Positions 1 through 26,680 of a stretch of DNA of 28,070 nucleotides are shown here, one piece after another. Position numbers and translations under genes: made by a program. Within the stretch, counting starts at the first letter, position 1; every line of letters starts with the position of its first letter. The notes beneath the pieces were generated by a model. That model was not told where the DNA came from. It saw only the letters and a program-made list of their open reading frames with translations, and made no database searches. The DNA is from a virus (Duplodnaviria > Heunggongvirae > Uroviricota > Caudoviricetes): positions 1-28,070 of the IMG/VR virus record IMGVR_UViG_2695420596_000005; one strand, written 5' to 3'.

Positions 1-609
1 ACCCTGACGGCGCTGGCAGAGCTTGCTACATCAGCAGATAAACTCCCATATTTTACAGGGGCAGATCGTGCCGCGTTAACCGCGTTGACAAGTGTTGGAC
101 GTGCCATTCTTGGTAAAACCAGCACTCAGGGAGTTCTTGATTACCTTGGTTTGGGGGAAGGCTCTGCACTGCCCGTTGGTGTACCTGTTCCGTGGCCCTC
201 AGCCACACCGCCAGCAGGGTGGCTGAAATGTAACGGTGCAGCATTTTCTTCTGAAATGTACCCAAAACTGGCAAAGGCCTACCCCACCAATAAATTACCG
301 GATTTACGCGGTGAATTTATCCGTGGCTGGGATGATGGGCGCGGGGTGGATGCCGGAAGGGGCATCTTAAGCATGCAGGGGTGGTTAACAGGAAGTCATT
401 ATCATAATATTCGGTCATGGGATGCGTGGGATAACACGGTGTTGGTGCCAAATGACAAAGGAGGGGATAGTCTGTTGTCGACAGATAACGCCGTCCGGCA
501 AGGTGCAATTAACGGTAGATTTACCAGTCAATACAGAACGGAATCCTCAGAGGGGAATGAAACCCACCCACGCAATATTGCCTTCAATTATATTGTGAGA
601 ACCGCATAA
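1..609 (+). CDS. Tail fibre protein, 3' portion (5' end off-window): constant region joined to variable C-terminal cassette Sv1
   Basis: Frame 1 is open from nt 1. Translation TLTALAELATSADKLPYFTG...GEGSALPVGVPVPW matches the internal sequence of the full-length fibre at 12506-14119. Ends ...NYIVRTA; stop overlaps the ATG of the next gene (ATAATG at 607-611). Confidence 0.8.
   Translation, partial: TLTALAELATSADKLPYFTGADRAALTALTSVGRAILGKTSTQGVLDYLGLGEGSALPVGVPVPWPSATPPAGWLKCNGAAFSSEMYPKLAKAYPTNKLPDLRGEFIRGWDDGRGVDAGRGILSMQGWLTGSHYHNIRSWDAWDNTVLVPNDKGGDSLLSTDNAVRQGAINGRFTSQYRTESSEGNETHPRNIAFNYIVRTA
134..159. other. hix/gix-like 26-bp recombination site A (TTCTTGATTACC-TT-GGTTTGGGGGAA)
   Basis: Two 12-bp half-sites around a 2-bp core, 10/12 match of the left half to the remembered hixL half-site TTCTTGAAAACC. 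Sequence identity with the inverted cassettes at 1695-1720 and 2134-2159 begins exactly here. Confidence 0.6.
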
Positions 610-1220
610 TGAATAACGCGATATTAAATGATGACCTTATTGCCGTACAGGCAGGAAACATCGTCGTTTATAACTATGATGGTGAGACACGGGAATATAT
701 TTCCGAATCAACTGAATATCTTGCTGTGGGTGTCGGTATTCCGGCAAATTCCTGTTTAGATGCCCCGGGCGCACATAAAGCGGGCTATGCTATCCGCCGT
801 TCGGAGAATTTAAGCTCATGGGAGTATGCGCCAGACCATCGTGGTGAAACCGTCTATAGCACTGACACGGGAAACACCGAAGAAATCACGGCGCTGGGTG
901 ACTACCCGAAAAATACAACCACTATCGCCCCGTTAACACCATACGATAAATGGGATGGTGAAAAATGGGTGACAGATACTGAGGCACAACATCGTGCTGC
1001 AGTAGAAGCGGCAGAAACCAAGCGCCAGTCACTGGCTGATGCGGCAATGGCTTCCATAAGTCTGATTCAGTTGAAGTTGCAGGCCGGGCGGAAGTTGACG
1101 CAGGCAGAAACCACCCGGCTTAATGCCGTGCTGGATTATATAGACGCGCTGAACGCAATGGATATAAACATGGCACCAGATATCAACTTGCCGGAAATAC
1201 CACTGGCAGCAGCCAGTTGA
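609..1220 (+). CDS. Tail fibre assembly protein (P2 gpG / Mu U-like)
   Basis: 203-aa ORF immediately after the fibre gene with overlapping stop/start. Family assignment is by position and remembered similarity of the C-terminal region to tail-fibre assembly chaperones. Confidence 0.8.
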   Translation: MNNAILNDDLIAVQAGNIVVYNYDGETREYISESTEYLAVGVGIPANSCLDAPGAHKAGYAIRRSENLSSWEYAPDHRGETVYSTDTGNTEEITALGDYPKNTTTIAPLTPYDKWDGEKWVTDTEAQHRAAVEAAETKRQSLADAAMASISLIQLKLQAGRKLTQAETTRLNAVLDYIDALNAMDINMAPDINLPEIPLAAAS

Positions 1221-1226
1221 ATATAA

Positions 1227-1703
1227 CTAAGCCGCCCTCACGATATAGTTAAATGCAATATTGCGGGGGCGGGTTTCACTACCACCTGTGTTACCAATAC
1301 TTCCTCGTGAATGAAGCGTTGGTGATGGAATCAAACTCCCTCCTGTATTTGTGGCATCAAGCCCCCTGCCTTGCGTATATGTTTTTTTGAAAATTGTGGC
1401 CAACTCCCATTCATCCTTTGTGTCATATCCATCGTTAGCTACAACAATATGGCGGTGTTTTTCCAACATCCCGTTTTGAATGCTCAATAAAGCGCGTGCC
1501 GCATCAATTCCTCGCCCATCATCCCAGCCACGGATAAATTCACCGCGTAAGTCTGGTAATTTATTGGTGGGGTAAGCCCTTGCCAGTTTTGGGTACTTTT
1601 CAGAAGAAAATGCTGCGCCGTTACATTTCAGCCATCCCGTTGGCGGCGTGGCTGAGGGCCATGGAACGGGCACACCAACGGGCAGTGCAGAGCCTTCCCC
1701 CAA
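1227..1703 (-). CDS. Promoterless alternative tail-fibre C-terminal cassette Sv2 (inverted orientation)
   Basis: No ATG; the frame opens at the recombination site and starts GEGSALPVGVPVPWPSATPP. Its 158 aa are identical to the C-terminus of the fibre at 12506-14119. Confidence 0.65.
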   Translation of the reverse strand: MGEGSALPVGVPVPWPSATPPTGWLKCNGAAFSSEKYPKLARAYPTNKLPDLRGEFIRGWDDGRGIDAARALLSIQNGMLEKHRHIVVANDGYDTKDEWELATIFKKTYTQGRGLDATNTGGSLIPSPTLHSRGSIGNTGGSETRPRNIAFNYIVRAA

Positions 1704-1720
1704 ACCAACGTTTTCATGCT
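1695..1720. other. hix/gix-like recombination site B, inverted relative to site A
   Basis: Reverse complement reads AGCATGAAAACG-TT-GGTTTGGGGGAA; the cassette-proximal half-site is identical to site A. Confidence 0.55.
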
Positions 1721-2199
1721 GCCCTTACGATGTAATTAAACGTAATATTACGAGGACGAATGGTTACATAATTAACCCCATCACCTCGTGAAGGCCCTGC
1801 AAATGAAAAACGGGAAAAGCCTGGTTGGTTAGAAACAATTTGGTCATAGTTATTGATTGAATGACCAGACCCAATGTCGAAATTACCTCCGTAATGAGAA
1901 AAACTTGTACCATCCTGCCCTGAAAGCAGGGTACGTCCCGCATCAATCCCGCGCCCATCATCCCAGCCACGGATAAATTCACCGCGTAAATCCGGTAATT
2001 TATTGGTGGGATAAGCCCTTGCCAGTCTGGGATACATTTCAGAAGAAAATGCTGCACCGTTACATTTCAGCCAGCCCGTTGGTGGTGTTGCTGAGGACCA
2101 CGGAACGGGCACACCAACGGGCAGTGCAGAGCCTTCCCCCAAACCAACGTTTTCGTTTTTATCCCTACCTATACCAACTCTGTATTTTTCACGAAACAA
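1714..2199 (-). CDS. Promoterless alternative tail-fibre C-terminal cassette Sv3 (inverted orientation)
   Basis: Shares the GLGEGSALPVGVPVPW...KLPDLRGEFIRGWDDGRGIDAGR constant stretch and the C-terminal NYIVRAA with the other cassettes, with a divergent middle. No ATG start at the site. Confidence 0.6.
   Translation of the reverse strand: MFREKYRVGIGRDKNENVGLGEGSALPVGVPVPWSSATPPTGWLKCNGAAFSSEMYPRLARAYPTNKLPDLRGEFIRGWDDGRGIDAGRTLLSGQDGTSFSHYGGNFDIGSGHSINNYDQIVSNQPGFSRFSFAGPSRGDGVNYVTIRPRNITFNYIVRAA
2134..2159. other. hix/gix-like recombination site C, inverted relative to site A and direct relative to B
   Basis: Reverse complement reads AAAACGAAAACG-TT-GGTTTGGGGGAA. Confidence 0.55.
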
Positions 2200-2213
2200 A
2201 GAGGATGTTTTTT

Positions 2214-2813
2214 ATGCAAATTGGCTATATTCGTGTGTCAACAAATGACCAGAACACGGATTTACAACGCAATGCACTGAACTGCGCAGGATGTGAACTG
2301 ATTTTTGAAGATAAAATCAGCGGAACGAAATCAGCCAGACCGGGATTGAAAAAACTGCTCAGAACGCTATCAGAAGGAGATACGCTGGTTGTCTGGAAGC
2401 TGGACAGACTGGGCAGAAGTATGAAACACCTGATCACGCTTATTGAGGAATTGCGGGAAAAAGGTGTTAATTTCCGTAGTCTGACGGACAGCATTGACAC
2501 ATCAACACCCATGGGGCGTTTCTTTTTTCACGTCATGGGGGCTTTAGCCGAAATGGAACGTGAATTAATTGTAGAGCGTACACTGGCCGGGCTGGCAGCA
2601 GCACGCGCACAAGGACGCATTGGCGGACGTCGCCCGAAGTTGACAAAAGAACAACACGAGCAAATAGCGAGGCTGATTAAAAACGGTCATGACAGGAAAC
2701 AACTGGCGATCATTTACGACATCGGCATATCGACGATTTATCGTTATCACCCTGTAGGCGATATACAGGCTGAAGAAACAACCAGGCAGACTCAGGAAAA
2801 TAAAAACCGCTAA
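2214..2813 (+). CDS. Serine DNA invertase (Gin/Hin/Pin/Cin family)
   Basis: MQIGYIRVSTNDQNTDLQRNAL... is the conserved resolvase/invertase N-terminus with the catalytic Ser in the RVST motif; C-terminal HTH. GAGG Shine-Dalgarno upstream of ATG 2214. Adjacent to three inverted 26-bp sites. Confidence 0.9.
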   Translation: MQIGYIRVSTNDQNTDLQRNALNCAGCELIFEDKISGTKSARPGLKKLLRTLSEGDTLVVWKLDRLGRSMKHLITLIEELREKGVNFRSLTDSIDTSTPMGRFFFHVMGALAEMERELIVERTLAGLAAARAQGRIGGRRPKLTKEQHEQIARLIKNGHDRKQLAIIYDIGISTIYRYHPVGDIQAEETTRQTQENKNR

Positions 2814-2833
2814 TCTGACCATTAGCGGTTTTG
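2805..2833. terminator. Bidirectional hairpin terminator between convergent invertase and gpU genes
   Basis: AAAACCGCTAAT-ctgacc-ATTAGCGGTTTT, a perfect 12-bp stem flanked by A-run on one side and T-run on the other. Confidence 0.6.
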
Positions 2834-2839
2834 CGTTAA

Positions 2840-3334
2840 TCAAAACAGCCCTTTAACGGAGCTGGCCGCGCTGTTAAGGGATGATGTGACCTTATCTTTG
2901 AAGCCGGACAGCATATCACTGAACGATGAGGATTGCAGGCGCTCCCGCAAATCCTCATCACAGCGTTCAAGAGTCAGTGAAAATTCTATCTTTTTCGCCT
3001 TACCGTAGCGATCAAACTCGGAACGGGTCGTATTCGTTTCAGTCAGTACATACATGCCGTAAATCTGCCCGACACCATCAATCAGAGGCCAGGGGCGTCC
3101 TGTATATGCCTGCGTGGTCAGCAACGAAAGCGACACTTCGCCACCTGTAATTTCAGGATAAAGCACGCCGGAAAGCACGATGCGATCATCACCTGCGCCG
3201 ATATACTGCCAGCTTGCTGAACGGTTAACGCGTTCATTTTTCACATGCCGCCAGCTTTTGTTTTGCTGTAACTGCTGATGCGGCAATGTGCGCAGCTCAA
3301 AAACAAACATGCCGTAGATCATCATCATGGCCAT
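2840..3334 (-). CDS. U: Tail protein, P2 gpU-like
   Basis: 164 aa, MAMMMIYGMFVFELRTLPHQQLQQNKSWRHVKNERVNRSASWQYIGAG..., similar to remembered P2 gpU; lies directly downstream of the tape-measure gene. Confidence 0.8.
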   Translation of the reverse strand: MAMMMIYGMFVFELRTLPHQQLQQNKSWRHVKNERVNRSASWQYIGAGDDRIVLSGVLYPEITGGEVSLSLLTTQAYTGRPWPLIDGVGQIYGMYVLTETNTTRSEFDRYGKAKKIEFSLTLERCDEDLRERLQSSSFSDMLSGFKDKVTSSLNSAASSVKGLF

Positions 3335-3340
3335 GACTCC

Positions 3341-6148
3341 TCAATCTTTATCGTAAAAACTGCCACGTCCGGCACGGTCGCGTCGTTCCAATTCTGCCCT
3401 GACCATTTCACCGACCAGTTTCGCCAGTTCGCGGGGATTCTGCGTAACAACGTTATGCAGATGAACATGAATTTCACCGCCAAATCCGGAGACAACAGGC
3501 TCCCGGTTACGGGAAGTTGCAGGAACTGATGCCACTGGCGATCGTATGGCCTCCGCCACCGGGCGGGAGCTGGCCGCAACAACAGGGACCAGCGCCGGAG
3601 GCAGAGGAGTCGGGACCACGGGTGTGATGTTGATTGCGGAAGCAGGCTTACTGACCTGCGCAATCTTCCGCTCCTGCCACTCCCCACGAACAGCAAGTGC
3701 GCGGGGCAGATTCTTAAAGACAATATCGCCGGGGCCAATGCGTTTTTTCGTCTCATCAACCAGCTTACCTGTGTTATCAGCAATTTTGCTGAGTCTGCGT
3801 AGCGTACCGGTATTGCTGTCTGTGAGCGGTTTGTTGTCTTTGGGTTTATCACCTCCGGTGCCATTGCCATTTTCCACAGGCTTCGGCGGATTGATTTTCG
3901 CCAGGTCCCCCTGAAGCAAGGCAACCTTGTCCTGAAGAATGGCCGCACGCTGTGCGTCTTCGATTTTCTTGCGCGCCCTTTCCGCTTCATCCGGAAGGAC
4001 GCCAAGTTTTTCAAGTATCCACGCCAGCGTATCCAGTAGCATTTTTGCAGGCGTCAGAACAAGTTGTAACGCACCGCCAAGAACGTTACCGAATATCTCG
4101 CCAGCACTGGTACATTTATCCAGCGTTTCCTTGCTGGACTCCATCGGTGACAGCAGCGATTTAAACCAGTTAAACACCTGGCTGATCCCGCTTCCGATTG
4201 CGTCAAAAACAGGACCAAACCGTTCAAAGGTTTCGCGCAACGGGGCCAGCCTTTCCATAATCCCGCTGAACACCCCGGCAAAAAATGCCCTGATGGGATC
4301 CCAGTATTTCCAGATAAGAACGGCAGCTCCGGCAAGTGCAGCCACGATAAGACCAACCGGACTGAACAGCGCCCCGATAGCGCCTCCCAGTAAAGAAACG
4401 GAACCCGTCACCATTCCCCATAGTGCTGGCAGGACCCTGACAGCATTCATTGATCCGGTCAGGAGAGAAAAACCAAGACGCAGTTTTGCCAGCGGACCAG
4501 CAAGCACACCAATAGCCAGCGACAACGAGCCAACCGTTGCAGTCATTGCCAGCAACGCACCGCCTGCTATCAGTAGCTGGCGCGTCAGTGCCGGATGGGC
4601 CTGCGCCAGCGCCGTCACCCTTGATACCACCCGCGTGAGCCACTGCGTGACAGAACGCAGCGGACCGTCAATCAGATCTGCAATGCGGATGCGCAACCCT
4701 TCCCATGCACTGCCGAGTGATTTCAGATCGCCGTCAAGGTTGTTGGCCATAACCTTTGCTGTGCGTTCAGCCTCACCGCGCGCGCCTTCAAGTTCTTTTC
4801 TCAGTTTGGGTAAGGAACCGTCACCCGCTGCATCAACGAGCGCCATAAACGATGTGAAAGCCTCTTCTCCGGCAATGTCCTTAAAGAACGATACCCGGTC
4901 AACTTCCCCGTATTTGCGGGTGGCTTTATAAAGGTCGGCCAGCACATCCTCCATCGGGCGCATTTTGCCCCCGGCATCCGAGACGGACACGCCCAGCTCT
5001 TTCAGAGCTTCTGCCGCCGCCTTTGGCGGTGATGCCAGACGAGCCAGGCTGGCACGCATTGCCGTCCCGGCATCACTCCCTCTGATGCCCATATTCGCCA
5101 GCACGCCAGCCATCGCTGCGGCCTGCTCCAGCGATATTCCCAGCTTACCCGCCACCGGACCTGCATATTTCATGGTTTCGCCCAGTGCGCGAAGGTCAGT
5201 GTTGGTACGGGTAAACGCTGCGGTGAGTGTGTCACCGACCCGGTCCATCTGGTCAGCAGAAAGGCCGAACTGCGTCAGGATATTTGAGCCAATATCTGCC
5301 GTCTCGCCGAGATCCATACCGCCAGCCGTTGCCATGCTCAGCACTCCGGGAAGCGCAGCCTGAATGGCCTGCGGTGTGAAGCCAGCCATTGCAAGAAATG
5401 CCTGCCCACTGGCGGCATCGCCTGCGGTGAACTGCGTTTCAGAGCCAAGTTTTAACGCCTGCTCACGCAGCGCCTTAAACTGCGGGCTGTTCTGGTCGAT
5501 TCGCGTCAGCGCCTGAACGCGGGACATCTCTTTGCCGAACCCGATCGCGGGCTGCAAAAAACGCCCGGCAGCATAGCCGCCCGCCGCTGCCGCACCAATT
5601 GCCAGCGCACCACCTGTTTTCAGTTTTCCCGCGGTTTCCTGCGCGCGCGAATACCGCTCACGCGCCCGCGTTACACGCGCAAGCGCCTGCCGTTCGCGTT
5701 CAAGCTGGTTGTTGTACTGTTCGGTGCGTCTGATGGCCTGCTGGATGGTGTTATCGCTGCCTGTCAGGGAAATGCCGTGGCGTTTCAGCTCTCCGCCAAG
5801 TTCCCGCATTTTCTGAATTTCCCGTGTGCGCGATTCATTCAGGCGTTCAAGCCGGGTGCTTAACTGCTGCATCAGCTTTTGTTGTTTTTCGCTGAGCACT
5901 GTACCCGTGCGTTGTAACTGATTAAGAGCGTTAAGCTGGCGTCGTGCTTTCAATATGCCAGCATCCGCTTTACTGACAGCGTCACGGGCGCGCTCAAATG
6001 AACGCGCCTGACGCTCGAGATTTTTGATCGCCCCCTGCGTTCGCTGGATGGAGTCACCAAACTGCCCCATCAGGCGGCGGGCGTTTTCGGCAGGCCGGGT
6101 CAGCCTGTCAACGGCGCTGAAAGCGACCCGGATATCAAGAGTCTTCAT
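3341..6148 (-). CDS. T: Tail tape-measure protein, P2 gpT-like
   Basis: ~935 aa, Ala/Gly/Leu-rich with coiled-coil N-terminal part and hydrophobic glycine-rich central segment, positioned between E/E' and U. Start placed at ATG 6148 (MKTLDIRV); the tracked ORF begins at an in-frame GTG at 6184. Confidence 0.85.
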   Translation of the reverse strand: MKTLDIRVAFSAVDRLTRPAENARRLMGQFGDSIQRTQGAIKNLERQARSFERARDAVSKADAGILKARRQLNALNQLQRTGTVLSEKQQKLMQQLSTRLERLNESRTREIQKMRELGGELKRHGISLTGSDNTIQQAIRRTEQYNNQLERERQALARVTRARERYSRAQETAGKLKTGGALAIGAAAAGGYAAGRFLQPAIGFGKEMSRVQALTRIDQNSPQFKALREQALKLGSETQFTAGDAASGQAFLAMAGFTPQAIQAALPGVLSMATAGGMDLGETADIGSNILTQFGLSADQMDRVGDTLTAAFTRTNTDLRALGETMKYAGPVAGKLGISLEQAAAMAGVLANMGIRGSDAGTAMRASLARLASPPKAAAEALKELGVSVSDAGGKMRPMEDVLADLYKATRKYGEVDRVSFFKDIAGEEAFTSFMALVDAAGDGSLPKLRKELEGARGEAERTAKVMANNLDGDLKSLGSAWEGLRIRIADLIDGPLRSVTQWLTRVVSRVTALAQAHPALTRQLLIAGGALLAMTATVGSLSLAIGVLAGPLAKLRLGFSLLTGSMNAVRVLPALWGMVTGSVSLLGGAIGALFSPVGLIVAALAGAAVLIWKYWDPIRAFFAGVFSGIMERLAPLRETFERFGPVFDAIGSGISQVFNWFKSLLSPMESSKETLDKCTSAGEIFGNVLGGALQLVLTPAKMLLDTLAWILEKLGVLPDEAERARKKIEDAQRAAILQDKVALLQGDLAKINPPKPVENGNGTGGDKPKDNKPLTDSNTGTLRRLSKIADNTGKLVDETKKRIGPGDIVFKNLPRALAVRGEWQERKIAQVSKPASAINITPVVPTPLPPALVPVVAASSRPVAEAIRSPVASVPATSRNREPVVSGFGGEIHVHLHNVVTQNPRELAKLVGEMVRAELERRDRAGRGSFYDKD

Positions 6149-6396
6149 TGTCTGTATTCCCGCTGCGAAGTGCCGCCCGCTCACGCCAGCTAACCACTTC
6201 GCCGGGAGTCATCATGAAGATTTCGGCGGGCGACCAGTTAAAAATGGTGGCAATATCCGCCACCAGATCTTCGATGTGCTCAAAGCACACCAGGGTGATT
6301 ACGCTGCCGTCTCCTGCACGCTCTTCGCGCCAGAGTCTGGCTCGCTCATAAAATTTACAGCCACAGCGCACAACTGAATAAAATCGCGTGACGACA
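6135..6396 (-). CDS. E' extension in the -1 frame (putative E+E' frameshift product)
   Basis: An overlapping ORF in the -1 frame begins just 3' of an A7 run (T7 at 6396-6402 on the plus strand, codons ATT-AAA-AAA-ATG) at about codon 91 of E and runs to 6135. Confidence 0.45.
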
Positions 6397-6673
6397 TTTT
6401 TTTAATCATCACTTCATCCAGTTGTGGCGAGGTCACGCGAGGCAACAGCGTGAACATGGTATCCGCTTTCAGATTCAGCACATCAGACAGCGACAGACCA
6501 CGCAGGGATCCCGCCTGCTCAATAGCCCCGGTGATCTCCACATATGTGATTTTTTCGGCACCACGCTCAATTGGCCGGGAAAGTTTTACACCACGTTCGA
6601 CAGCCATATCCTCACCTGCCGTCACATCATCCGCTACGGTGTTATTCCGGGTTTCAGTATCGATATTTTTCAT
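6299..6673 (-). CDS. E: Tail assembly chaperone, P2 gpE-like (zero-frame product)
   Basis: 124-aa ORF with AAGGAG Shine-Dalgarno before ATG 6673, in the position between tube and tape-measure genes. Confidence 0.65.
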   Translation of the reverse strand: MKNIDTETRNNTVADDVTAGEDMAVERGVKLSRPIERGAEKITYVEITGAIEQAGSLRGLSLSDVLNLKADTMFTLLPRVTSPQLDEVMIKKMSSRDFIQLCAVAVNFMSEPDSGAKSVQETAA

Positions 6674-6728
6674 CAGTTGTCTCCTTTTCAGTCAGAGGCG
6701 ACGCACTGCGCCGCCTGCATATTACTTA

Positions 6729-7241
6729 TCAGCCAAGCCCGAGCGCGGAACGGATGCGATCGGGCACAATGTCCTTGCCGTCCTTCCGGTAAATGAAGTT
6801 CAGCAGGTCAATCTCCCACAACGGACGATCGTTAACACTCAGCTTGTAGTAGGTGTTTTTAATGGCGTAAGTGTGTGATGTGGCTTCGCCCTGTTTGGCT
6901 TCCCCCATATCAATTTCCGTCACACGTCCGCGCATTTCGACTTCATACAGGTCGCTTTCTGCATCGGTGTAATATTCACCCGCAAAACGCAGCAGCGTGC
7001 CGTCAATCGTGCCGCCATACTTAAGGAACAGCTCACGAACTGCGCCCCCCATGACAAAGCTCGCATCAAGCGCGGAGTCGTCCAGACCGAGATCAATACT
7101 TACCGCCCCCATCATGCCACCACCCCGGTAGCTGTCGGTTTTGCGCGTCAGCTTAGGCAGGGTGACGGACGTCACCTTACCCACTTCGTTTTCACCATCC
7201 ACAAACAGCGTAAAAAAGCGAAGATGTTTTGGCACAGCCAT
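6729..7241 (-). CDS. FII: Tail tube protein, P2 gpFII-like
   Basis: 170 aa, immediately downstream of the sheath gene; size and position match P2 FII. Confidence 0.8.
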   Translation of the reverse strand: MAVPKHLRFFTLFVDGENEVGKVTSVTLPKLTRKTDSYRGGGMMGAVSIDLGLDDSALDASFVMGGAVRELFLKYGGTIDGTLLRFAGEYYTDAESDLYEVEMRGRVTEIDMGEAKQGEATSHTYAIKNTYYKLSVNDRPLWEIDLLNFIYRKDGKDIVPDRIRSALGLG

Positions 7242-8425
7242 CAGGCACCTCCCAGCACCGCAAATGCGGGTTCAAAGTATTCATCAGTAAACGTCTGGTA
7301 AAGCTCCATGTCTTCCAGTGGCGGAACGGGCGTATATTTGTAGCGAATACGCACACGCCCCTGACGTAAATCCGTGGTGCTGTTATCCACCACGTCATAC
7401 CAGCACTCCGCGCCAATCAGTTTCCCGGCAGTCACCAGTGAATCCAGTTTTGCCCTGATGGCACTGATAACATCCTTCACGTTCGCAGGCGTCAGTGGAC
7501 TGTCGATGGTTTCAAACTGCGCTTCCGCAATTGAATCAGCCAGCACCTGTGCGGTTCGGGTATACACCTCAAAGATGTAGGCGTTCGTTTCCGGTGTGCG
7601 GTTGCCCCAGAAGCGGAACCCGTTGCGACGAATAATGGTCGTGATTTCTTTGTTGTTGAGGCTGTTGGCATCGCTGTCTTCGGCCTGCAACGACCAGAAC
7701 ACATGCCTCGACATCCCCAGCACATTTTTAACCGGAACGTTGGACAGTGATTTGTGCCAGCCCTGCTCATGGTCAATGTACGCACGAAGGCCGCACGCAT
7801 AGGCAGGCGCGGGGAACGTTTCGTTTTTGCCACTTTTCGGGTTGTAGGCGATGAAGTCCGGCCATAAGAGCATCACCTCACGTTCGTTGAATTTCTGGCG
7901 GTAGGTAATCGCATCAGCCATCGTGTCACAGCCATGACATGAGGCATACACAAACGCGCGCAGTTTACCCGCAATCACGCACAGGGATTTTGTCACCGCC
8001 TCCGTGTCCAGCTCCGGCGCGGCCAGAATACGCGGACGGTATCCGATGCTTTCATCCTGCTCTGCAACAAGCAGCGCATACATCCCCGTATAGCTGCCGT
8101 CAGATTCAGAACCACCGATAACCAGTTGATCCTGCGTCTTTCCGTCTTCTTCTTTGTGTTCAGCCACGCGAACGACGATCACCTTTGTGCTCACCTGGTC
8201 TGCGATAGCCTTAAGCGCACGATAAAGCGTCCCCGTTGTCCCGCATTTTCCCAGCACGTCATTGACGCGGGTCAGCAGTGTGGGCTTGTTCAGCGGGAAC
8301 AGCTTCGCGTCCGCATCATCCGCCGTTGCCACGATACCGATAACACTGGAATCAACATCATTAATCGCTGTTACCAGGTCGGTATTTTCCGTAACACGGG
8401 CACCATGAAAACGAGTTTCACTCAT
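7241..8425 (-). CDS. FI: Contractile tail sheath protein, P2 gpFI-like
   Basis: Start placed at MSETRFHGARV (ATG 8425, AAGGGG Shine-Dalgarno), giving ~394 aa, close to P2 FI size. The tracked ORF extends upstream to 8599 without a ribosome-binding site. Confidence 0.8.
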   Translation of the reverse strand: MSETRFHGARVTENTDLVTAINDVDSSVIGIVATADDADAKLFPLNKPTLLTRVNDVLGKCGTTGTLYRALKAIADQVSTKVIVVRVAEHKEEDGKTQDQLVIGGSESDGSYTGMYALLVAEQDESIGYRPRILAAPELDTEAVTKSLCVIAGKLRAFVYASCHGCDTMADAITYRQKFNEREVMLLWPDFIAYNPKSGKNETFPAPAYACGLRAYIDHEQGWHKSLSNVPVKNVLGMSRHVFWSLQAEDSDANSLNNKEITTIIRRNGFRFWGNRTPETNAYIFEVYTRTAQVLADSIAEAQFETIDSPLTPANVKDVISAIRAKLDSLVTAGKLIGAECWYDVVDNSTTDLRQGRVRIRYKYTPVPPLEDMELYQTFTDEYFEPAFAVLGGA

Positions 8426-8582
8426 AGCTTCAGCCCCTTGTATCCGTAAAATGATTCGGCAACAATCATCACCCACCACGCGCGTAATCTCACCCCTGCG
8501 CCGTTCTCCCGACCCGGCGACAACAAAAAGCAGTAACCCCCTCCGCACGCACATGCGACCATGCCGCACAGGGAGGGAACAG

Positions 8583-9683
8583 ATGACCGATACCACCATG
8601 CAATTGCTCAGTCAGGGCACAGACCCCGTGAAAATGCCGGATTTTGATATTCTCGCGGAGGGTAAAACGCTGTCAGGCGTGGCAGAGCGCCTGATGAGCC
8701 TGTCACTGACCGACAACCGGGGATTTGAGGCGGACCAGCTCACCATCACGCTGGATGATGCGGATGGTCAGTTGCAGCTACCGCCACGGGGCGCGCGCCT
8801 GACGGTTCTCATTGGCTGGAAAGGAGAACCGCTGACAGAAAAAGGCACTTACATTGTTGATGAAATCGCTCACGAAGGACCGCCGGACAGGCTGACTGTT
8901 TCAGCCAGAAGCGCAGATTTTCGGGATGAATTTAACGTTAAACGTGAGGTGTCCTGGCATGATGTGACCGTTGAGCGCGTGGTATCTGCCATCGCTCATC
9001 GGTACGGTCTGAAACCGCAAATCAGCGAAATACTGATGGATATCGAAATCGACCACGCCGACCAGACCGAAGAAAGCGACATGTCCTTCCTTACGCGCAT
9101 GGCGGAAATGCTGGGCGCAATCACCACGGTAAAAAGCGGTAATCTGTTATTCATCATGCCAGGCGGTCGCGTGAACGCACTGGGCCAGCCGTTGCCATCG
9201 TTCGCCATCACACGCAGCAGCGGCGATCGCCATCAGTTCCGCATTGCTGACCGCGAGGCGTATACGGGTGTACGCGCCTACTGGCTTGATCTTAATTACG
9301 GGAAAAAGAAAAAAGTCAGCGTGAAACGCCGCAAACCGAAAAAAGAGAAAAGCAGCAGCCGTGAAGGTGACTATATGGAAGGTGCGGAAGGCAACGTGTT
9401 TGTGTTACGCAAAACTTATCAGAACGAGCAGGCAGCAAGACGCGCAGCGGCGGCAAAATGGCAGCAGCTACAACGCGGAGCCGCATCATTTTCCATCACG
9501 CTGGCACGTGGACGAGCAGAACTCTACCCCGAAATGCATGGCACGGTAACAGGATTTAAAAGCGAGATTGATAATCAGGACTGGATCATTGCAAAAGCCG
9601 AGCACACCATTGATAACAGTGGCTTTACCACGCAGCTTGAGCTTGAAGCCAAAATCCCGGAATGGATAGCAGAAACAGAGTAA
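8583..9683 (+). CDS. D: Late tail gene D product, P2 gpD-like
   Basis: Start at MTDTTMQLLSQG (ATG 8583) preceded by GGGAGGG Shine-Dalgarno; ~366 aa; lies between FI and the ogr-like gene. Confidence 0.75.
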   Translation: MTDTTMQLLSQGTDPVKMPDFDILAEGKTLSGVAERLMSLSLTDNRGFEADQLTITLDDADGQLQLPPRGARLTVLIGWKGEPLTEKGTYIVDEIAHEGPPDRLTVSARSADFRDEFNVKREVSWHDVTVERVVSAIAHRYGLKPQISEILMDIEIDHADQTEESDMSFLTRMAEMLGAITTVKSGNLLFIMPGGRVNALGQPLPSFAITRSSGDRHQFRIADREAYTGVRAYWLDLNYGKKKKVSVKRRKPKKEKSSSREGDYMEGAEGNVFVLRKTYQNEQAARRAAAAKWQQLQRGAASFSITLARGRAELYPEMHGTVTGFKSEIDNQDWIIAKAEHTIDNSGFTTQLELEAKIPEWIAETE

Positions 9684-9877
9684 ACAACTTAGATGCATTA
9701 GCCCTGACATTTGCTAACGCGCTTACAGCAAGAATCATAACCAATCTGACAGCCTACCCGGTGTCAAAATCAGAAGAGCCTTACATTAGAATATGTTAAT
9801 TTGTAGCAAACAAATTTACACACAAATGATTACTGCTGAAATAGCCCCCATAAATGCCATGTCAAAGGATCCATGTT

Positions 9878-10543
9878 ATGAATATGCAAATTTTTATCGC
9901 ACCAGCAGCCACAGTTGCTGCAGTCTGCCTTGCTGCATATTTTGCTTTACGAAATGAACGTAAAAAGAAAGCACTTGAGATTAGAACAACTCAACTAGAT
10001 CGAATATCTGAGCTAGTAAACCGAGCATCTACCAATTTGATGCAATATACAGGTACTCTTGCCTCTATACTGGAAGCGCACGCCAAAGATAATTATCTAC
10101 CGAACAAAAAATTTGACATTAATGTAATTAGCAAATGGAAAGATTGCCTCGATGAGAGTGAGGTCTGGGCGATTGATATACAGCAACTAAGAACATGTCA
10201 GCACAGTCTGGAGTTTCATCGTGAAAAAGAATGGGCTGAATGGAAAAAAATAATTCCACCATTACTTGATAAAATTAACCAATTTTTTCTCATATCTAAG
10301 CCAGGGCAACCTGTTACGTTTATAAATGGCCAAAACAAAACAGCTGATGAACTACTTGTTTTCTCAAGATATTTGAGAAAACAAACAGCAGAAATTGAAT
10401 CAGTACGTCAGCTGTTACTTTCTCAAATGAGAGAGGAATTCATCGAGTTAACTAGCTTTGAACCTGTCACAATGTTTAGCTTATTTAAATCAATAAAGAA
10501 AAATGTCATGCAATTTTTCTGTATCAGTGCTCTTAAAAATTGA
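9878..10543 (+). CDS. Hypothetical membrane-anchored protein (AT-rich accessory gene)
   Basis: Start MNMQIFIAPAATVAAVCLAAYFAL gives one N-terminal hydrophobic helix followed by a charged ~200-aa domain. The region looks markedly AT-rich by eye. P2 has no gene between D and ogr. Confidence 0.6.
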   Translation: MNMQIFIAPAATVAAVCLAAYFALRNERKKKALEIRTTQLDRISELVNRASTNLMQYTGTLASILEAHAKDNYLPNKKFDINVISKWKDCLDESEVWAIDIQQLRTCQHSLEFHREKEWAEWKKIIPPLLDKINQFFLISKPGQPVTFINGQNKTADELLVFSRYLRKQTAEIESVRQLLLSQMREEFIELTSFEPVTMFSLFKSIKKNVMQFFCISALKN

Positions 10544-10558
10544 CGCTCTGTTGCAAGC

Positions 10559-10581
10559 AACCCCAGTGTTAAACTGGGGTT
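10559..10581 (+). terminator. Hairpin terminator candidate after the accessory gene
   Basis: AACCCCAGT-gttaa-ACTGGGGTT followed by ATTCTTGC. Confidence 0.45.
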
Positions 10582-10692
10582 ATTCTTGCTAAGAGACCTT
10601 TCTACGGCATCAGTAAACAAAACGAACTATCAGTTGGAGTCTGAGCAAGTTCAGCCTAAACTAGCGACAGCACTACGTTAAGGGAGGTCGCT

Positions 10693-10953
10693 ATGTTCCG
10701 TTGTCCGCTTTGTGGCGCATCTGCCCGTATCCGCACCAGTCGTCCGGAAAATGATTCAAACACCGTGCGGCAAAAGTATTACCAGTGTAACAACCTGGAA
10801 TGCGGCGTATGCTTCTCAACACTGGAAGCTTTCCATAAATTCACATCGAAACACGCCTCCGGCATCCACTCTTCAGAAGGTATCCCGTGGCATGAGCTGC
10901 CAGCTTCACACAGGGGAAACAATCAGATGAGCTTGCCTTTACCTCAGAATTAA
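10693..10953 (+). CDS. ogr: Zinc-finger late transcription activator, Ogr/Delta family
   Basis: MFRCPLCGASARIRTSRPENDSNTVRQKYYQCNNLECGVCFSTLEAF: CxxC...CxxxxC arrangement and similarity to P2 Ogr. Strong AAGGGAGG Shine-Dalgarno. Confidence 0.85.
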   Translation: MFRCPLCGASARIRTSRPENDSNTVRQKYYQCNNLECGVCFSTLEAFHKFTSKHASGIHSSEGIPWHELPASHRGNNQMSLPLPQN

Positions 10954-11092
10954 CAGGCAGAATTGCCGGAGTAACAAAAACGCGATAGATTACGCGCGGG
11001 TGCCTTTCGGCTGATGGTCGGAGGGAATACCCGAAGGCCAGATGTGGAAAGGCCCCGGAAAACATCTCTGTTTAACCGAGGCCCTAACCGCA

Positions 11093-12181
11093 TTACCTTG
11101 ACAAGTGAAAGGTTAGCGCCTCTCCGGAAAAGGAGCAAGTGCTTGTATGGGTCCACCACATATTGCAATTTTTATTCTCTTTTAAAATATATTCCACGGG
11201 CGTCATTAGTGCGAGCGCCTTGTGGGGTCTTTTGCTGTTATACAGCACCAGATATTCCGCCAGCTTCTGGTTAAATAGCGCCAGATCTTCAAAGAGTAAA
11301 ATCTCATTAAATTCAATAAACTGCTCTCTTAACGTCCGGTTAAAACGTTCACAGATAGCGTTCATTTTTGGCGTGTAGGGATAGGTCCAGAGGTGTTTGA
11401 TAGCGGCTTCCTGCAGCGTTTTGTCGAAGTTTCCCAGGAACTCTTTTCCGTTATCTGTGATTATCTGGCTGATACCGACCGGGAACAACCGGGCTGCGCG
11501 GCTGAAGAAGTGATTGACGATATCACTGTTGAGTGACGGCACAGCCAGCGCCAGCGCGTAATTGCTGCATTCGTCGATCATGGTGATGACATAGCGACGC
11601 AGTTCGCCCATTCTGAGCTCAATGGCGTCCATCCCAATGAGCTCACCTGTCTTTACCGGGCGGTAGTGCTTTGGCCTGCGGGGTTTGGCAGACCGCTTTT
11701 TGACAAGCAGTGCCTTCCCCCGCGATCCCAGACGCACAGGTATCATCCGCATTTTATCATGTGCGGCAGCGATCATTCTGCCGATGGTGGAAACACTCGG
11801 ACAGGCCAGATAGCGCTGTTCGCACCAGGGCTTCAGGCGAACAAAAATCTGCTCTTTACCGAGGTTCGGCAGCTCTGTCCTGAGGCGTCGAATCTCTTTC
11901 AGCACATCGGGATGCCAGTGTTTTTTTCGTCGCACCAGAGGTGCCTTACTGTGCGGGATTAGCCCCTCAGGTCCTTCCTTGTTCAGTAACTGACGCCACC
12001 AGTAAAGCGTGCGGCAGGACACGCCAAAGGCTTCAGAAGCTGCAGAAATACCGTGTTTATCCCAGAAGTGCAGAGCCTTCATTCTCATTGTTGCTATATC
12101 AGCCATCACTGAAAGCCTCAACGCATAATCGGCCGTTTGGTAGTACTTAGGATAGCCAACCATCAGATGCTGCATTTGCAT
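11093..12181 (-). CDS. DDE transposase (rve/integrase-core), IS481-family-like
   Basis: 362-aa ORF with N-terminal HTH region, ITDNGKEF and YxPxxN...E motifs typical of retroviral-integrase-type transposases. The last few codons probably read through into flanking DNA. Confidence 0.75.
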   Translation of the reverse strand: MQMQHLMVGYPKYYQTADYALRLSVMADIATMRMKALHFWDKHGISAASEAFGVSCRTLYWWRQLLNKEGPEGLIPHSKAPLVRRKKHWHPDVLKEIRRLRTELPNLGKEQIFVRLKPWCEQRYLACPSVSTIGRMIAAAHDKMRMIPVRLGSRGKALLVKKRSAKPRRPKHYRPVKTGELIGMDAIELRMGELRRYVITMIDECSNYALALAVPSLNSDIVNHFFSRAARLFPVGISQIITDNGKEFLGNFDKTLQEAAIKHLWTYPYTPKMNAICERFNRTLREQFIEFNEILLFEDLALFNQKLAEYLVLYNSKRPHKALALMTPVEYILKENKNCNMWWTHTSTCSFSGEALTFHLSR

Positions 12182-12216
12182 AGTGCAATCTCCCCTTACT
12201 TATCCGGAGGCAATTA
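11110..12216 (-). mobile_element. Insertion sequence, IS481-family-like (~1.1 kb)
   Basis: Single DDE transposase ORF. The right boundary is set where identity to the tfa copy at 940-1220 begins (12217/12218). The left boundary is approximate, set from an imperfect terminal inverted repeat (GTTAGCGCCTCTCCGGAAAAGG versus TAATTGCCTCCGGATAAGTAAGG). Confidence 0.6.
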
Positions 12217-12217
12217 A

Positions 12218-12499
12218 CCATACGATAAATGGGATGGTGAAAAATGGGTGACAGATACTGAGGCACAACATCGTGCTGCAGTAGAAGCGGCAGAAACCAA
12301 GCGCCAGTCACTGGCTGATGCGGCAATGGCTTCCATAAGTCTGATTCAGTTGAAGTTGCAGGCCGGGCGGAAGTTGACGCAGGCAGAAACCACCCGGCTT
12401 AATGCCGTGCTGGATTATATAGACGCGCTGAACGCAATGGATATAAACATGGCACCAGATATCAACTTGCCGGAAATACCACTGGCAGCAGCCAGTTGA
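12218..12499 (+). pseudogene. Truncated tail-fibre assembly gene (3' remnant only)
   Basis: Identical to the 3' part of the tfa at 609-1220 from nt ~940 onward; identity starts abruptly at the IS end, leaving the last ~83 codons without the native start. Confidence 0.75.
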
Positions 12500-12505
12500 A
12501 TATAA

Positions 12506-14119
12506 CTAAGCCGCCCTCACGATATAGTTAAATGCAATATTGCGGGGGCGGGTTTCACTACCACCTGTGTTACCAATACTTCCTCGTGAATGAAGCGTTG
12601 GTGATGGAATCAAACTCCCTCCTGTATTTGTGGCATCAAGCCCCCTGCCTTGCGTATATGTTTTTTTGAAAATTGTGGCCAACTCCCATTCATCCTTTGT
12701 GTCATATCCATCGTTAGCTACAACAATATGGCGGTGTTTTTCCAACATCCCGTTTTGAATGCTCAATAAAGCGCGTGCCGCATCAATTCCTCGCCCATCA
12801 TCCCAGCCACGGATAAATTCACCGCGTAAGTCTGGTAATTTATTGGTGGGGTAAGCCCTTGCCAGTTTTGGGTACTTTTCAGAAGAAAATGCTGCGCCGT
12901 TACATTTCAGCCATCCCGTTGGCGGCGTGGCTGAGGGCCATGGAACGGGCACACCAACGGGCAGTGCAGAGCCTTCCCCCAAACCAAGGTAATCAAGAAC
13001 TCCCTGAGTGCTGGTTTTACCAAGAATGGCACGTCCAACACTTGTCAACGCGGTTAACGCGGCACGATCTGCCCCTGTAAAATATGGGAGTTTATCTGCT
13101 GATGTAGCAAGCTCTGCCAGCGCCGTCAGGGTGGCATCCTTCGGTTGCTTACCCGCAAGCGCGTTAGTCATGGTGGTCGCAAAATTCGGGTCATTGCCCA
13201 GCGCCGCAGCCAGTTCGTTCAGCGTGTTCAGTGCATCAGGTGACGAATCTACAAGTGCGGCAATCGCGGCCATAACGAAAGCCGTGCTTGCGATCTGGGT
13301 ACTATTAGTCCCCTGTGGCGCTGTTGGTGTTGTTGGCGTTCCGGTCAGTGCCGGGCTGTTTAATGGTGCTTTCTTGTTCGTTTCATCCATTACCGCCTTA
13401 ACAGCTTTTGGTGTCGCTGCCAGCGTTTCAGACGTGCTGTTCGTGGCGCTACTGAGCTGAACAATTCCTTTTTGTGTAGTGGTGGCGTTCTGGGCGGTAT
13501 ATTTCCCGTTAGCCAGGTCATATGCAGCCTTAACCGCTTTCGGTGTTGCGGCCAGTGTTTCTGATTCACTGTTAATTGCACTGCTTAACTGAGTAAAACC
13601 TTTTACGGTCAGCGAGGCGTCCGGGTGACGTCGTGACTGTTCGTGCTCTGAGATTTTATCATCCACATATTTGCGGGTTGCCAGAACCACAGACGGGTCG
13701 ATTTTCAGCGTGATGGCTTCGGTGTTCGTGACAACCAGAATCATGCGGATAGTCTGGGTGCGTCCACTGCCTTCCTGCAACTGCGGTTTGTACGTTTCCG
13801 GGCAGTTTGCCACCGCAATGAGTACACCTTCATCATCATAAAGACCAATCTCACGGATCCAGAATCCTCCCTCGTTTTCAGGGATGATTTGCTCCGCAAT
13901 AATCTGGCTCTGATTGTTAGGGTCAACACTCAGAAGATTCAGCGGTGCAATGCGTTTCTGGTTAATCAGTTTTGTTTGTGCAGGGTCTGGTGTTGGTAAC
14001 ACACCATTTGCATCACCAACGGCCATTTGCGTCAGATTCAGCTTACTGCCGAGCATCGTCGCGTTAGCCAGTCGTGCCGCGCCCTGATTAGTCAGAATGG
14101 CGTAGTATTTCACTGTCAT
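12506..14119 (-). CDS. H: Tail fibre protein, P2 gpH-like N-terminus with the Sv2 C-terminal domain
   Basis: 537 aa. N-terminal two-thirds similar to remembered P2 H (AVANCPETYKP, EHEQSRRHPDASLTVKGFTQLSS, TPKAVKAVMDETNKKAPLNSPALTGTPT). C-terminal 158 aa identical to cassette 1227-1703. Confidence 0.9.
   Translation of the reverse strand: MTVKYYAILTNQGAARLANATMLGSKLNLTQMAVGDANGVLPTPDPAQTKLINQKRIAPLNLLSVDPNNQSQIIAEQIIPENEGGFWIREIGLYDDEGVLIAVANCPETYKPQLQEGSGRTQTIRMILVVTNTEAITLKIDPSVVLATRKYVDDKISEHEQSRRHPDASLTVKGFTQLSSAINSESETLAATPKAVKAAYDLANGKYTAQNATTTQKGIVQLSSATNSTSETLAATPKAVKAVMDETNKKAPLNSPALTGTPTTPTAPQGTNSTQIASTAFVMAAIAALVDSSPDALNTLNELAAALGNDPNFATTMTNALAGKQPKDATLTALAELATSADKLPYFTGADRAALTALTSVGRAILGKTSTQGVLDYLGLGEGSALPVGVPVPWPSATPPTGWLKCNGAAFSSEKYPKLARAYPTNKLPDLRGEFIRGWDDGRGIDAARALLSIQNGMLEKHRHIVVANDGYDTKDEWELATIFKKTYTQGRGLDATNTGGSLIPSPTLHSRGSIGNTGGSETRPRNIAFNYIVRAA
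12974..12999. other. hix/gix-like recombination site within the H gene (reverse complement identical to site A)
   Basis: TTCCCCCAAACC-AA-GGTAATCAAGAA is the exact reverse complement of 134-159. Confidence 0.55.
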
Positions 14120-16575: not shown

Positions 16576-16692
16576 GTGTTATAAATCAGGCGCTCATCTG
16601 CCTGGCTGATACCCAGCAGCTCACGTACCGGGTATCGCCATCATCGGTATCGGTGATGTCGTCCTCTGCGGGTCCGGGGTTGGTTCTGGCAA
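16576..16692 (-). CDS. Small acidic ORF (38 aa) in the M-V gap
   Basis: ATG at 16692 preceded by CAGGAGTG Shine-Dalgarno; encodes MSMVARTNPGPAEDDITDTDDGDTRYVSCWVSARQMSA. Not in the supplied track (too short). Confidence 0.2.
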
Positions 16693-19562: not shown

Positions 19563-19716
19563 AGTTTTTGCCCCTCTGACTGGTTCTTCAGTCATGATGG
19601 CAAAGCGTAACAGGCTGATACAAAGGGCTTTTGTTGTAAGAAAACGGCCAGAACAGGGGGTTAAGGAGAACAGTTTCGCGCGCGGGTAATCTTCCTGTAA
19701 TTACTCAGGGGGAGCA

Positions 19717-26396: not shown

Positions 26397-26680
26397 GAGT
26401 ATCCTTACTTTTTTACTGTATGGATAATCAGCATAAAATCTATCCAGTTGGGTTACTCGAACATACTGTCAATACTTGTTTCCAACGATTGATCAGTTCT
26501 ACAGTTTTATCTCCTTCACTTGTGTTGGCAGCATGCTTATTCCTGAACCAGCTCGATTAACCCATGCTCATCGCGGTAGGGATAGAACGCTGCTAAACGC
26601 TCAAAGTCTGCCTGTTCGTGTGTGTTCAGGACTTTTGCCATGTGTGATAACCTGCGCTATCTGTGGTTGTTTGTGACTTG

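Follow-up and report, generated by a model that had tools for sequence, protein, structure and literature searches.

In phage P2, the tail genes are arranged in the co-directional order FI-FII-E-E'-T-U-D and are transcribed from promoter pF, as the initial annotation had stated and as the P2 annotation confirms. There, D comes immediately after U, is encoded on the strand of U and has no promoter of its own. The late-promoter consensus TGT-N12-ACA and its dependence on Ogr have been described (PMC3931495). In the P2 annotation, a distance of about 57 nt separates the activator site of pF from the pF start point, and one activator site (3057-3087) is located between start points 3016 and 3127. 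The latter belongs to pP and pO, which serve late genes that diverge across about 150 bp; their one dyad lies halfway, with about 55 nt between it and either start point. The same tail gene set in the order inv-FI-FII-E-T-U-D-ogr is found in Peduovirus magyaro.

The DNA analyzed here (the window, 28,070 nucleotides of the IMG/VR record IMGVR_UViG_2695420596_000005) contains all components of a P2-type tail gene set, namely sheath, tube, E, tape measure, U and D, together with an Ogr/Delta zinc-finger activator. The gene map (Table 1) was derived from the ORF layout, Pfam matches and the annotation that RefSeq gives for the near-identical E2348/69 prophage, and all three sources agree with the initial annotation that the tail operon is split, with FI to U on the minus strand and D, the cargo gene and ogr on the plus strand. 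D is thus not located directly 3' of U on one strand but lies on the opposite strand, about 5.7 kb away. The 157-bp length given earlier for the divergent region was exact, as it follows from the start of FI at 8425 and the start of D at 8583. The ribosome-binding sites claimed for both genes were also recovered: the ATG of FI is preceded at 8 nt by a Shine-Dalgarno-like AAGGGG, and that of D at 5 nt by GGGAGGG. The E protein had no match in the Pfam search, and E and E' were assigned through the E2348/69 prophage annotation. The cargo product had neither a Pfam nor a PADLOC match; a strong hairpin (10559-10581, -26.7 kcal/mol) is located 3' of its gene. On the basis of regional identity and collinearity, the region is identified as the tail module of a P88-like E. 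coli prophage (genus Xuanwuvirus, family Peduoviridae), in a copy that carries deletions.

Table 1. Coordinates of genes and predicted control elements in the tail region of the window.
Feature	Position	Strand	Evidence or remark
Serine DNA invertase, Hin/Gin/Cin type	2214-2813	+	Pfam Resolvase (1.5e-51) and HTH_7; recombinase family protein in E2348/69; final gene on the tail-fibre side, convergent with U
Hairpin between invertase stop and U stop	2803-2832	.	12-bp stem, 6-nt loop; overlaps the invertase stop codon
gpU tail protein	2840-3328	-	Pfam Phage_P2_GpU (5.5e-39); E2348/69 annotation; closes the inverted block
gpT tape measure protein	3341-6148	-	Pfam PhageMin_Tail (3.6e-58); E2348/69 annotation
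E', GpE family	6135-6290	-	E2348/69 annotation; Phage_P2_GpE match of the 51-aa product in related loci
gpE	6299-6673	-	E2348/69 annotation; tail assembly chaperone pair with E'
gpFII tail tube	6729-7241	-	Pfam Phage_tube (7.5e-47)
gpFI tail sheath	7241-8425	-	Pfam Phage_sheath_1, Gp18_domIII_N, Phage_sheath_1C; opens the inverted block
FI/D divergent control region, 157 bp	8426-8582	.	Predicted bidirectional late promoter
-10-like hexamer GATGAT, FI-side promoter (pF)	8465-8470	-	34 nt from the dyad
Dyad TCTCCCGACCCGGCGACA	8505-8522	.	Candidate Ogr binding site common to both predicted promoters
-10-like hexamer GACCAT, predicted D promoter	8557-8562	+	34 nt from the dyad
gpD baseplate hub/late control D protein	8583-9683	+	Pfam Phage_GPD (2.9e-17); detached from the F operon
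221-aa hypothetical protein, low-GC cargo gene between D and ogr	9878-10543	+	GC about 0.39
ogr, late-gene activator	10693-10953	+	Pfam Ogr_Delta (5.1e-14)

The initial annotation had named a lineage-wide divergent FI/D order as the finding that would make the split conserved but unremarkable, and divergent FI/D is indeed the norm in the relatives of this element. Over 1-11146 the window matches the chromosome of E. coli E2348/69 at 99.97 to 100% identity, and the annotation of that genome shows this gene order. Phages P88, P884B11, Shae_phiSM, 520873 and 500465-2 are collinear with it over 2220-11146 at about 92 to 96% DNA identity. Compared with the type phage P88, the identity is 94.6% over this interval and 99.1% across the FI/D junction, and the gene order is equal. 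The junction is unbroken in 13 phage records, and an equal divergent order is found in Klebsiella Reipivirus, Enterobacter Novemvirus and Serratia KSP20. The 80 genome loci surveyed were those most similar to the query and not a random sample; among them, FI diverged from D in all 58 prophage loci whose D was at least 61% identical to that of the window (about 27 enterobacterial genera), and U and D were co-directional in 20 of the 20 classifiable loci with a P2-type D. The D protein of the window is 52% identical to that of P2 and 71 to 78% identical to those of other divergent-order lineages, and the length of the FI/D gap ranges from 151 to 157 bp across four phage lineages. P88 and phiSM are viable phages (PMC6456863). 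The presence of divergent FI/D in viable close relatives and in dozens of prophages of other genera indicates that this order is conserved and unremarkable. The split tail cluster is real, and it is the standard, long-fixed order of a large P2-like branch (the P88 group), not a trait of this element.

Assembly error, which the initial annotation had named as a possible refutation, left no sign at the FI/D junction. The sequence does belong to contig CXZG01000006.1 of a draft assembly (GCA_001283165.1), and the window starts at a contig edge inside a repeat; however, the stretch that matches the finished E2348/69 chromosome spans both ends of the block, independently sequenced phages are collinear at about 95% identity, and the same junction occurs in complete genomes. 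We consider the probability of such an error negligible.

Could the split be a recent, element-specific rearrangement, with FI-U or D-ogr flipped by the resident invertase or by the nearby IS481-family element? Crossover-like sites were found only at the tail-fibre cassettes (145, 1693, 2132 and 12972) and none at 2805-2840 or 8426-8582, although the invertase gene abuts the FI-U block. No repeats, including inverted repeats, flank this block. The order is found with near-identical sequence in complete genomes and isolated phages, Reipivirus and Novemvirus share it without an invertase at that position, and the opposite orientation was absent among close relatives, all 58 loci of the D clade being in one orientation. 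A recent flip is therefore very improbable, even though the same contig has an IS-linked rearrangement and deletions elsewhere. FI-U was also considered as an invertible segment of the Hin/Gin/Cin type and was rejected, as inverted crossover sites do not flank it and only one orientation was seen.

The prophage copy in the window is degraded: it lies at a draft-contig edge, contains a junction linked to IS481 and carries two deletions, all outside the FI/D region. For the IS481 junction and a duplicated tfa/Hv2 segment, neither a single IS-to-IS inversion nor an invertase flip reproduced the observed left end of the contig. The IS481-tfa junction and the second Hc/Hv2 copy may represent a single genuine structure, a mixture of variants in the population or a path error of short-read assembly. 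The 38-mer at the IS/tfa junction was absent from viral and metagenome collections and from complete RefSeq E. coli genomes, and a look-up of the 83-aa truncated tfa product returned only unrelated frameshifted copies. As the copy is defective, expression in its strain may be irrelevant.

The co-directional order FI to U and D is retained in P2 and in the outgroup Ralstonia phage RsoM1USA, and magyaro has the same order along with the invertase cassette found here. As P2-type loci and this outgroup keep the co-directional order, a single old inversion of FI-U explains the divergent order. The initial annotation had proposed one or two inversions or a non-canonical architecture of the lineage; the lineage architecture was borne out and one inversion suffices, so that the second is unneeded.

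The hairpin reported earlier at the convergent ends of the invertase gene and U was located at 2803-2832. Its folding energy is -15.7 kcal/mol on the plus strand (z -4.4) and -17.6 kcal/mol on the minus strand (z -2.6), and its T-run is good on the minus strand and weaker on the plus strand. It is likely a bidirectional intrinsic terminator.

The search of the FI/D gap for Ogr-dependent late-promoter elements, suggested in the initial annotation for both strands, was positive but yielded one shared dyad and not one per strand. This single dyad reads TCT-N12-ACA, or TGT-N12-AGA on the minus strand, and is imperfect in the window, with TCT instead of TGT on the D-proximal reading. An exact scan of the whole window for TGT-N12-ACA gave 5 matches, compared with 7.3 expected by chance, and none in the FI/D gap; the dyad, which deviates by one base, was found only through the annotated sites of P2 and the P/O gap of the window. 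The extended motif TGTTGT-N12-AGAAC has its sole two exact window matches in the FI/D gap and the P/O intergenic region (19632-19654), a match that is partly circular because the motif was derived from these two sites.

Among 56 distinct related FI/D gaps, the dyad was present in 55 and the perfect TGT-N12-ACA in 33. Of the 56, 54 had a hexamer of the form xAxxxT at an offset of exactly 34 nt on the FI side of the dyad, 50 had one on the D side and 49 had both, counts that are somewhat inflated since the dyad of each locus was chosen for the best hexamer score. The offset profile peaks sharply at 34 nt, and in an unanchored MAFFT alignment the invariant columns fell on the two halves of the dyad, on a CGCGCG box and on each of the -10-like hexamers. 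The sharp profile and the independent alignment argue that the spacing between dyad and hexamers is not an artefact. In the P promoter of the window, TAATCT has the same spacing from its dyad as GACCAT, and the pF hexamer of P2, GAAAAT, is located one nucleotide further out than the FI-side GATGAT.

The layout of the FI/D dyad matches the shared P/O activator site of P2, from which we infer a single bidirectional, Ogr-dependent late promoter, as suggested by spacing and conservation. The gap is probably a second bidirectional late promoter, in which pF and a new promoter for D would be activated in a symmetric manner from one Ogr dyad. No description of a bidirectional FI/D late promoter was found in the papers searched.

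It is unlikely that D is instead served by a separate Ogr-free promoter, with the order still a lineage norm and the dyad serving pF alone. The nearby ogr gene of P2 has its own sigma-70 promoter, and in the window the D-side half-site is imperfect and GACCAT is a weak -10-like sequence; however, the D-side hexamer keeps the spacing of the FI side in most of these diverged regions, and this spacing recurs at the P promoter of the window and, within 1 nt, at pF of P2. The dyad is also perfectly symmetric in many relatives, and there is a precedent in P2, where a single site serves a pair of divergent late promoters. A scan for the generic sigma-70 consensus on both strands of the FI/D gap found none, which is expected for activator-dependent promoters. 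The absence of a sigma-70-like site thus gives direct support neither to a shared dyad nor to a separate D promoter.

In this account, a single ancient inversion turned the block pF-FI-FII-E/E'-T-U around with respect to the P2 order, which is taken as ancestral. The inverted block now converges on the tail-fibre/invertase end at the likely terminator hairpin and diverges from D. D, the last gene of the F operon in P2, became the first gene of its own unit, followed sometimes by a cargo gene and then by ogr. One Ogr-type dyad, which is centred at 8513.5 and belongs to the TGT-N12-ACA class, would precede both of two back-to-back start points by about 55 nt. The hexamer spacing places the predicted starts near 8458 on the minus strand, into FI, and near 8568 on the plus strand, into D, the latter with a short predicted leader of about 15 nt. 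As with the divergent P and O promoters of P2, one activator site would serve both sides, and D would remain late and Ogr dependent though cut off from pF. We assign a probability of roughly 85% to this account as a whole, that is, a P88-like tail module with one old FI-U inversion and a predicted shared late promoter.

If this is true, the old inversion succeeded since the near-palindromic activator site worked from both sides, and the orphaned D gained late regulation instantly, making the FI/D gap a second example beside the P/O pair of P2. A symmetric activator site would let a phage survive the inversion of a whole late operon, since late control would be kept by the operon as well as by the gene that stayed in place. 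Divergent FI/D itself reliably marks a large clade of P2-like prophages (the P88 group, Reipivirus, Novemvirus and relatives), which annotators should expect and take as neither rearrangement nor error.

In the literature on P88, Xuanwuvirus, KSP20 and the E2348/69 prophage, no explicit treatment of the inverted tail block was found. The closest set consists of P88 (Xuanwuvirus P88), P884B11, Citrobacter phage Shae_phiSM, 520873, 500465-2 and the E2348/69 prophage next to ihfA. This group has the identical order of inv, opposite-strand U-T-E-FII-FI, then D, ogr and hok, and the same 157-bp FI/D gap and dyad. The cargo between D and ogr varies, the slot being annotated as empty in P88 and holding a different gene in AH19B041. 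In contrast to this group, a gene of the IS481 family lies at the start of hok in the present copy, which also has deletions elsewhere. Klebsiella Reipivirus ST16-OXA48phi5.4, Enterobacter Novemvirus phiT5282H and Serratia KSP20 have a gap of 151 to 154 bp with the same dyad and hexamer spacing, although their DNA identity to the window is only about 70%. Next to U, Reipivirus and Novemvirus have no invertase but cargo genes or tfa; the partial KSP20 record stops short of this position.

Stenotrophomonas phage Smp131 is P2-like with reshuffled late operons and TGT-N12-ACA sites relocated accordingly, and one such site is read on both strands for P/O (PMC3931495). Its rearrangement is a different one, in which V and J-H were moved, and not the FI-U inversion. 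The F operon of P2 and that of magyaro have the same genes and the same internal order from FI to U as the present locus, with an activator site like that of pF, equally oriented, upstream of FI and, as here, ogr after D; the difference from P2 is that FI-U is inverted here. The FI/D gap resembles pP/pO of P2 in layout but would serve the pair FI and D in place of P and O.

The window carries a P2-type tail module, as judged by open reading frame (ORF) layout and Pfam hits. The genes, named after their P2 counterparts, are listed in the table. In the P2 record, FI, FII, E, E', T, U and D all lie on one strand, downstream of the promoter pF, whereas in the window the genes from FI to U are encoded opposite to D and ogr. 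Between the start codons of FI and D lie 157 bp (8426-8582), and each start is preceded by a Shine-Dalgarno-like sequence. At 2803-2832, a hairpin with a 12-bp stem has folding energies of -15.7 kcal/mol on the plus strand and -17.6 kcal/mol on the minus strand, outperforming shuffled controls. The initial annotation (for 2805-8582) had placed FI-FII-E-T-U and D-ogr on opposite strands; ORF layout, Pfam hits and hairpin folding confirmed this description.

Coordinates of the features in the window
Feature	Position	Strand	Remark
Hv1, Hv2, Hv3	138-609, 1227-1703, 1714-2199		three alternative H C-terminal cassettes for one constant part
Tail-fibre assembly gene	609-1220		single
Serine invertase	2214-2813	+	ends 26 nt from U stop
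U	2840-3328	-	
T	3341-6148	-	
E'/E	6135-6673	-	
FII	6729-7241	-	
FI	7241-8425	-	
-10-like hexamer	8465-8470	-	GATGAT
-10-like hexamer	8557-8562	+	GACCAT
D	8583-9683	+	
Hypothetical	9878-10543	+	221 aa
ogr	10693-10953	+	
IS481-family transposase	11093-12181		after ogr

Positions 1-11146 matched the finished Escherichia coli E2348/69 chromosome (CP059840.2) at 99.97-100% identity; there, the prophage lies between btuC and ihfA and its annotated gene order is that of the window. An assembly error at the FI/D junction is excluded by this identity to finished genomes. Positions 2220-11146 were collinear, at ~92-96%, with the phage records of Escherichia phage P88 (type species of Xuanwuvirus), P884B11, Shae_phiSM, and Escherichia phages 520873 and 500465-2. 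In P88, the invertase gene is followed by tail protein, tape measure, tube and sheath genes on the opposite strand and then by D. P88 has been described as an inducible phage that lyses many strains, and phiSM (Citrobacter phage Shae_phiSM) as spontaneously active (PMC6456863), indicating that the split arrangement belongs to working phages.

The 221-aa gene between D and ogr is low in GC, has no match in Pfam or PADLOC, and is followed by a very stable hairpin (10559-10581, -26.7 kcal/mol). P88 has no gene annotated in this slot, and strain AH19B041 has an unrelated one there, indicating that D-ogr is a cargo hotspot in the P88-like lineage.

An 801-base query across the FI/D junction was recovered in one piece in 13 phage records. 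Serratia phage KSP20 matched it collinearly at ~70% identity, and its gpD-like and gpFI-like genes diverge as in the window. Klebsiella phage ST16-OXA48phi5.4 (Reipivirus) and Enterobacter phage phiT5282H (Novemvirus) also have the window's order, with no invertase adjoining U. A D-protein alignment, searched against one genome per bacterial species, returned 80 loci, in each of which FI and U were located by tblastn. Wherever D was at least 61% identical to that of the window (58 of 58 loci), FI was immediately upstream on the opposite strand, with U ~5 kb beyond on the FI strand. These loci span ~27 genera, including Salmonella, Klebsiella, Enterobacter, Serratia, Pectobacterium, Erwinia, Pantoea, Edwardsiella, Xenorhabdus, Photorhabdus, Providencia, Morganella, Yersinia and Hafnia. 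In contrast, the 20 classifiable loci in which D is of the P2 type (48-53% identity to that of the window) all had FI to U and D co-directional. A 226-kb contig labelled Vagococcus sp. WN89Y (NZ_JBQPOM010000071.1) carries a P88-like prophage whose D is 98% identical to that of the window, and looks like enterobacterial contamination of that assembly.

Switching of the FI-U block by the resident invertase is excluded by crossover sites, repeats and lineage comparison. The only crossover-like sites (of the CTTGGTTTGGGGGAAGG class) are those of the tail-fibre cassettes, at 145, 1693, 2132 and 12972, and no repeats flank the block. Invertase-free lineages have the identical FI-U order, and none of the 58 loci with a D like that of the window has the opposite orientation. 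An outgroup Ralstonia phage has the canonical order, and the P2-type phage Peduovirus magyaro, which carries a homologous invertase cassette, has the order inv-FI-FII-E-T-U-D-ogr; thus, one FI-U inversion, with breakpoints between inv and FI and between U and D, suffices. This inversion is old and fixed. The initial annotation had read the split as one or two inversions relative to the P2 order or as a non-canonical architecture in this lineage, and had noted that its presence in close intact phages would make it unremarkable. Close intact phages (P88, phiSM and relatives) do share it, and it is the standard architecture of a known, widespread phage clade.

The multi-cassette invertible tail-fibre system (1-2213 and 12506-14119) contains hix-like sites (TTCTTGATTACCTTGGTTTGGGGGAA). 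Hv2 is the cassette carried by the H gene at 12506-14119, and Hv1 is that of the left copy. The window is 2-28071 of contig CXZG01000006.1 (draft assembly GCA_001283165.1), so its left end is at the contig edge. Positions 1-182 are the exact reverse complement of 12951-13132 (H constant region/crossover site), and 938-1715 is repeated directly at 12217-12994 as a second copy of the tfa C-terminus and Hv2. This suggests either that the inverted duplication is real or that the assembly path ran through a population containing both orientations of the fibre segment. Other strains naturally have an IS481-family gene at this position, after ogr and before hok. At 12216/12217, the far end of the window's IS481-family gene meets the tail-fibre assembly gene at 938, with TTAAC microhomology, and beyond it lies the other half of the same prophage (head and baseplate), inverted. 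This junction was not found in complete RefSeq E. coli, viral or metagenome collections, and no single simple event tried reproduced the structure. Its possible sources are a genuine inverted duplication, a mixed population and an error in the short-read assembly path.

Compared with E2348/69, the head and baseplate half has also lost 2,876 bp at 16629-16637 (part of L to part of S, taking X, holin, endolysin, spanins and R; 9-nt junction microhomology) and 6,551 bp at 26558-26559 (early genes along with those for partition and replication endonuclease A; 2 nt). Both deletions indicate a defective copy, unable to replicate or lyse. Beyond the portal gene, where P2 has old and tin, lies a two-gene IetA/IetS defence system (23019-26302, minus strand; AAA ATPase and S8 protease) of low GC (~0.40). 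The oddities elsewhere in the window have no bearing on the FI/D finding.

Ogr-dependent promoters share the consensus TGT-N12-ACA (PMC3931495). In the FI/D gap, where the initial annotation had suggested a search for late-promoter elements on both strands, one dyad of this class, TCT-N12-ACA (8505-8522), was found and is predicted to serve both FI and D. The gap reads TTTTGTTGTCGCCGGGTCGGGAGAACGG on the FI strand, and the window's P/O gap reads TTTTGTTGTAAGAAAACGGCCAGAACAGG. The pattern TGTTGT-N12-AGAAC matches exactly these two gaps in the window, which is only suggestive because it was derived from them. The comparative data are stronger evidence. In the window, P88, KSP20, Reipivirus and Novemvirus, the gap measures 151-157 bp and contains a single dyad, T(C/G)T-N12-ACAACAA, whose centre is 68.5-71.5 nt away from the ATG of D and 82.5-88.5 nt away from that of FI. 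Among 56 distinct gaps from the 58 divergent loci, 55 have the dyad (33 of the 56 a perfect TGT-N12-ACA). At a distance of exactly 34 nt from the dyad, 50 gaps have a -10-like hexamer (A at position 2, T at position 6) on the D side, 54 have one on the FI side and 49 have both; at adjoining offsets, the counts are 0-10. In a MAFFT alignment not anchored on the motif, the invariant columns fell on both halves of the dyad, on a CGCGCG box and on the A and T of each hexamer.

The gap is thus most likely one predicted bidirectional Ogr-dependent late promoter, with starts that would fall near 8458 (minus strand) toward FI and near 8568 (plus strand) toward D. A separate, Ogr-independent promoter for D fits less well with the conserved symmetric spacing. 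The predicted shared promoter is the only mildly new element here. The window's P promoter has this 34-nt spacing as well, and P2 pF has it to within one nucleotide. The extended dyad half TTGTTGT faces FI, as in pF, which fits pF having moved along with the inverted block. The P2 record annotates activator-binding sites for late promoters, among them a single site (3057-3087) that is flanked by the start points (3016 and 3127) of the divergent P and O promoters.
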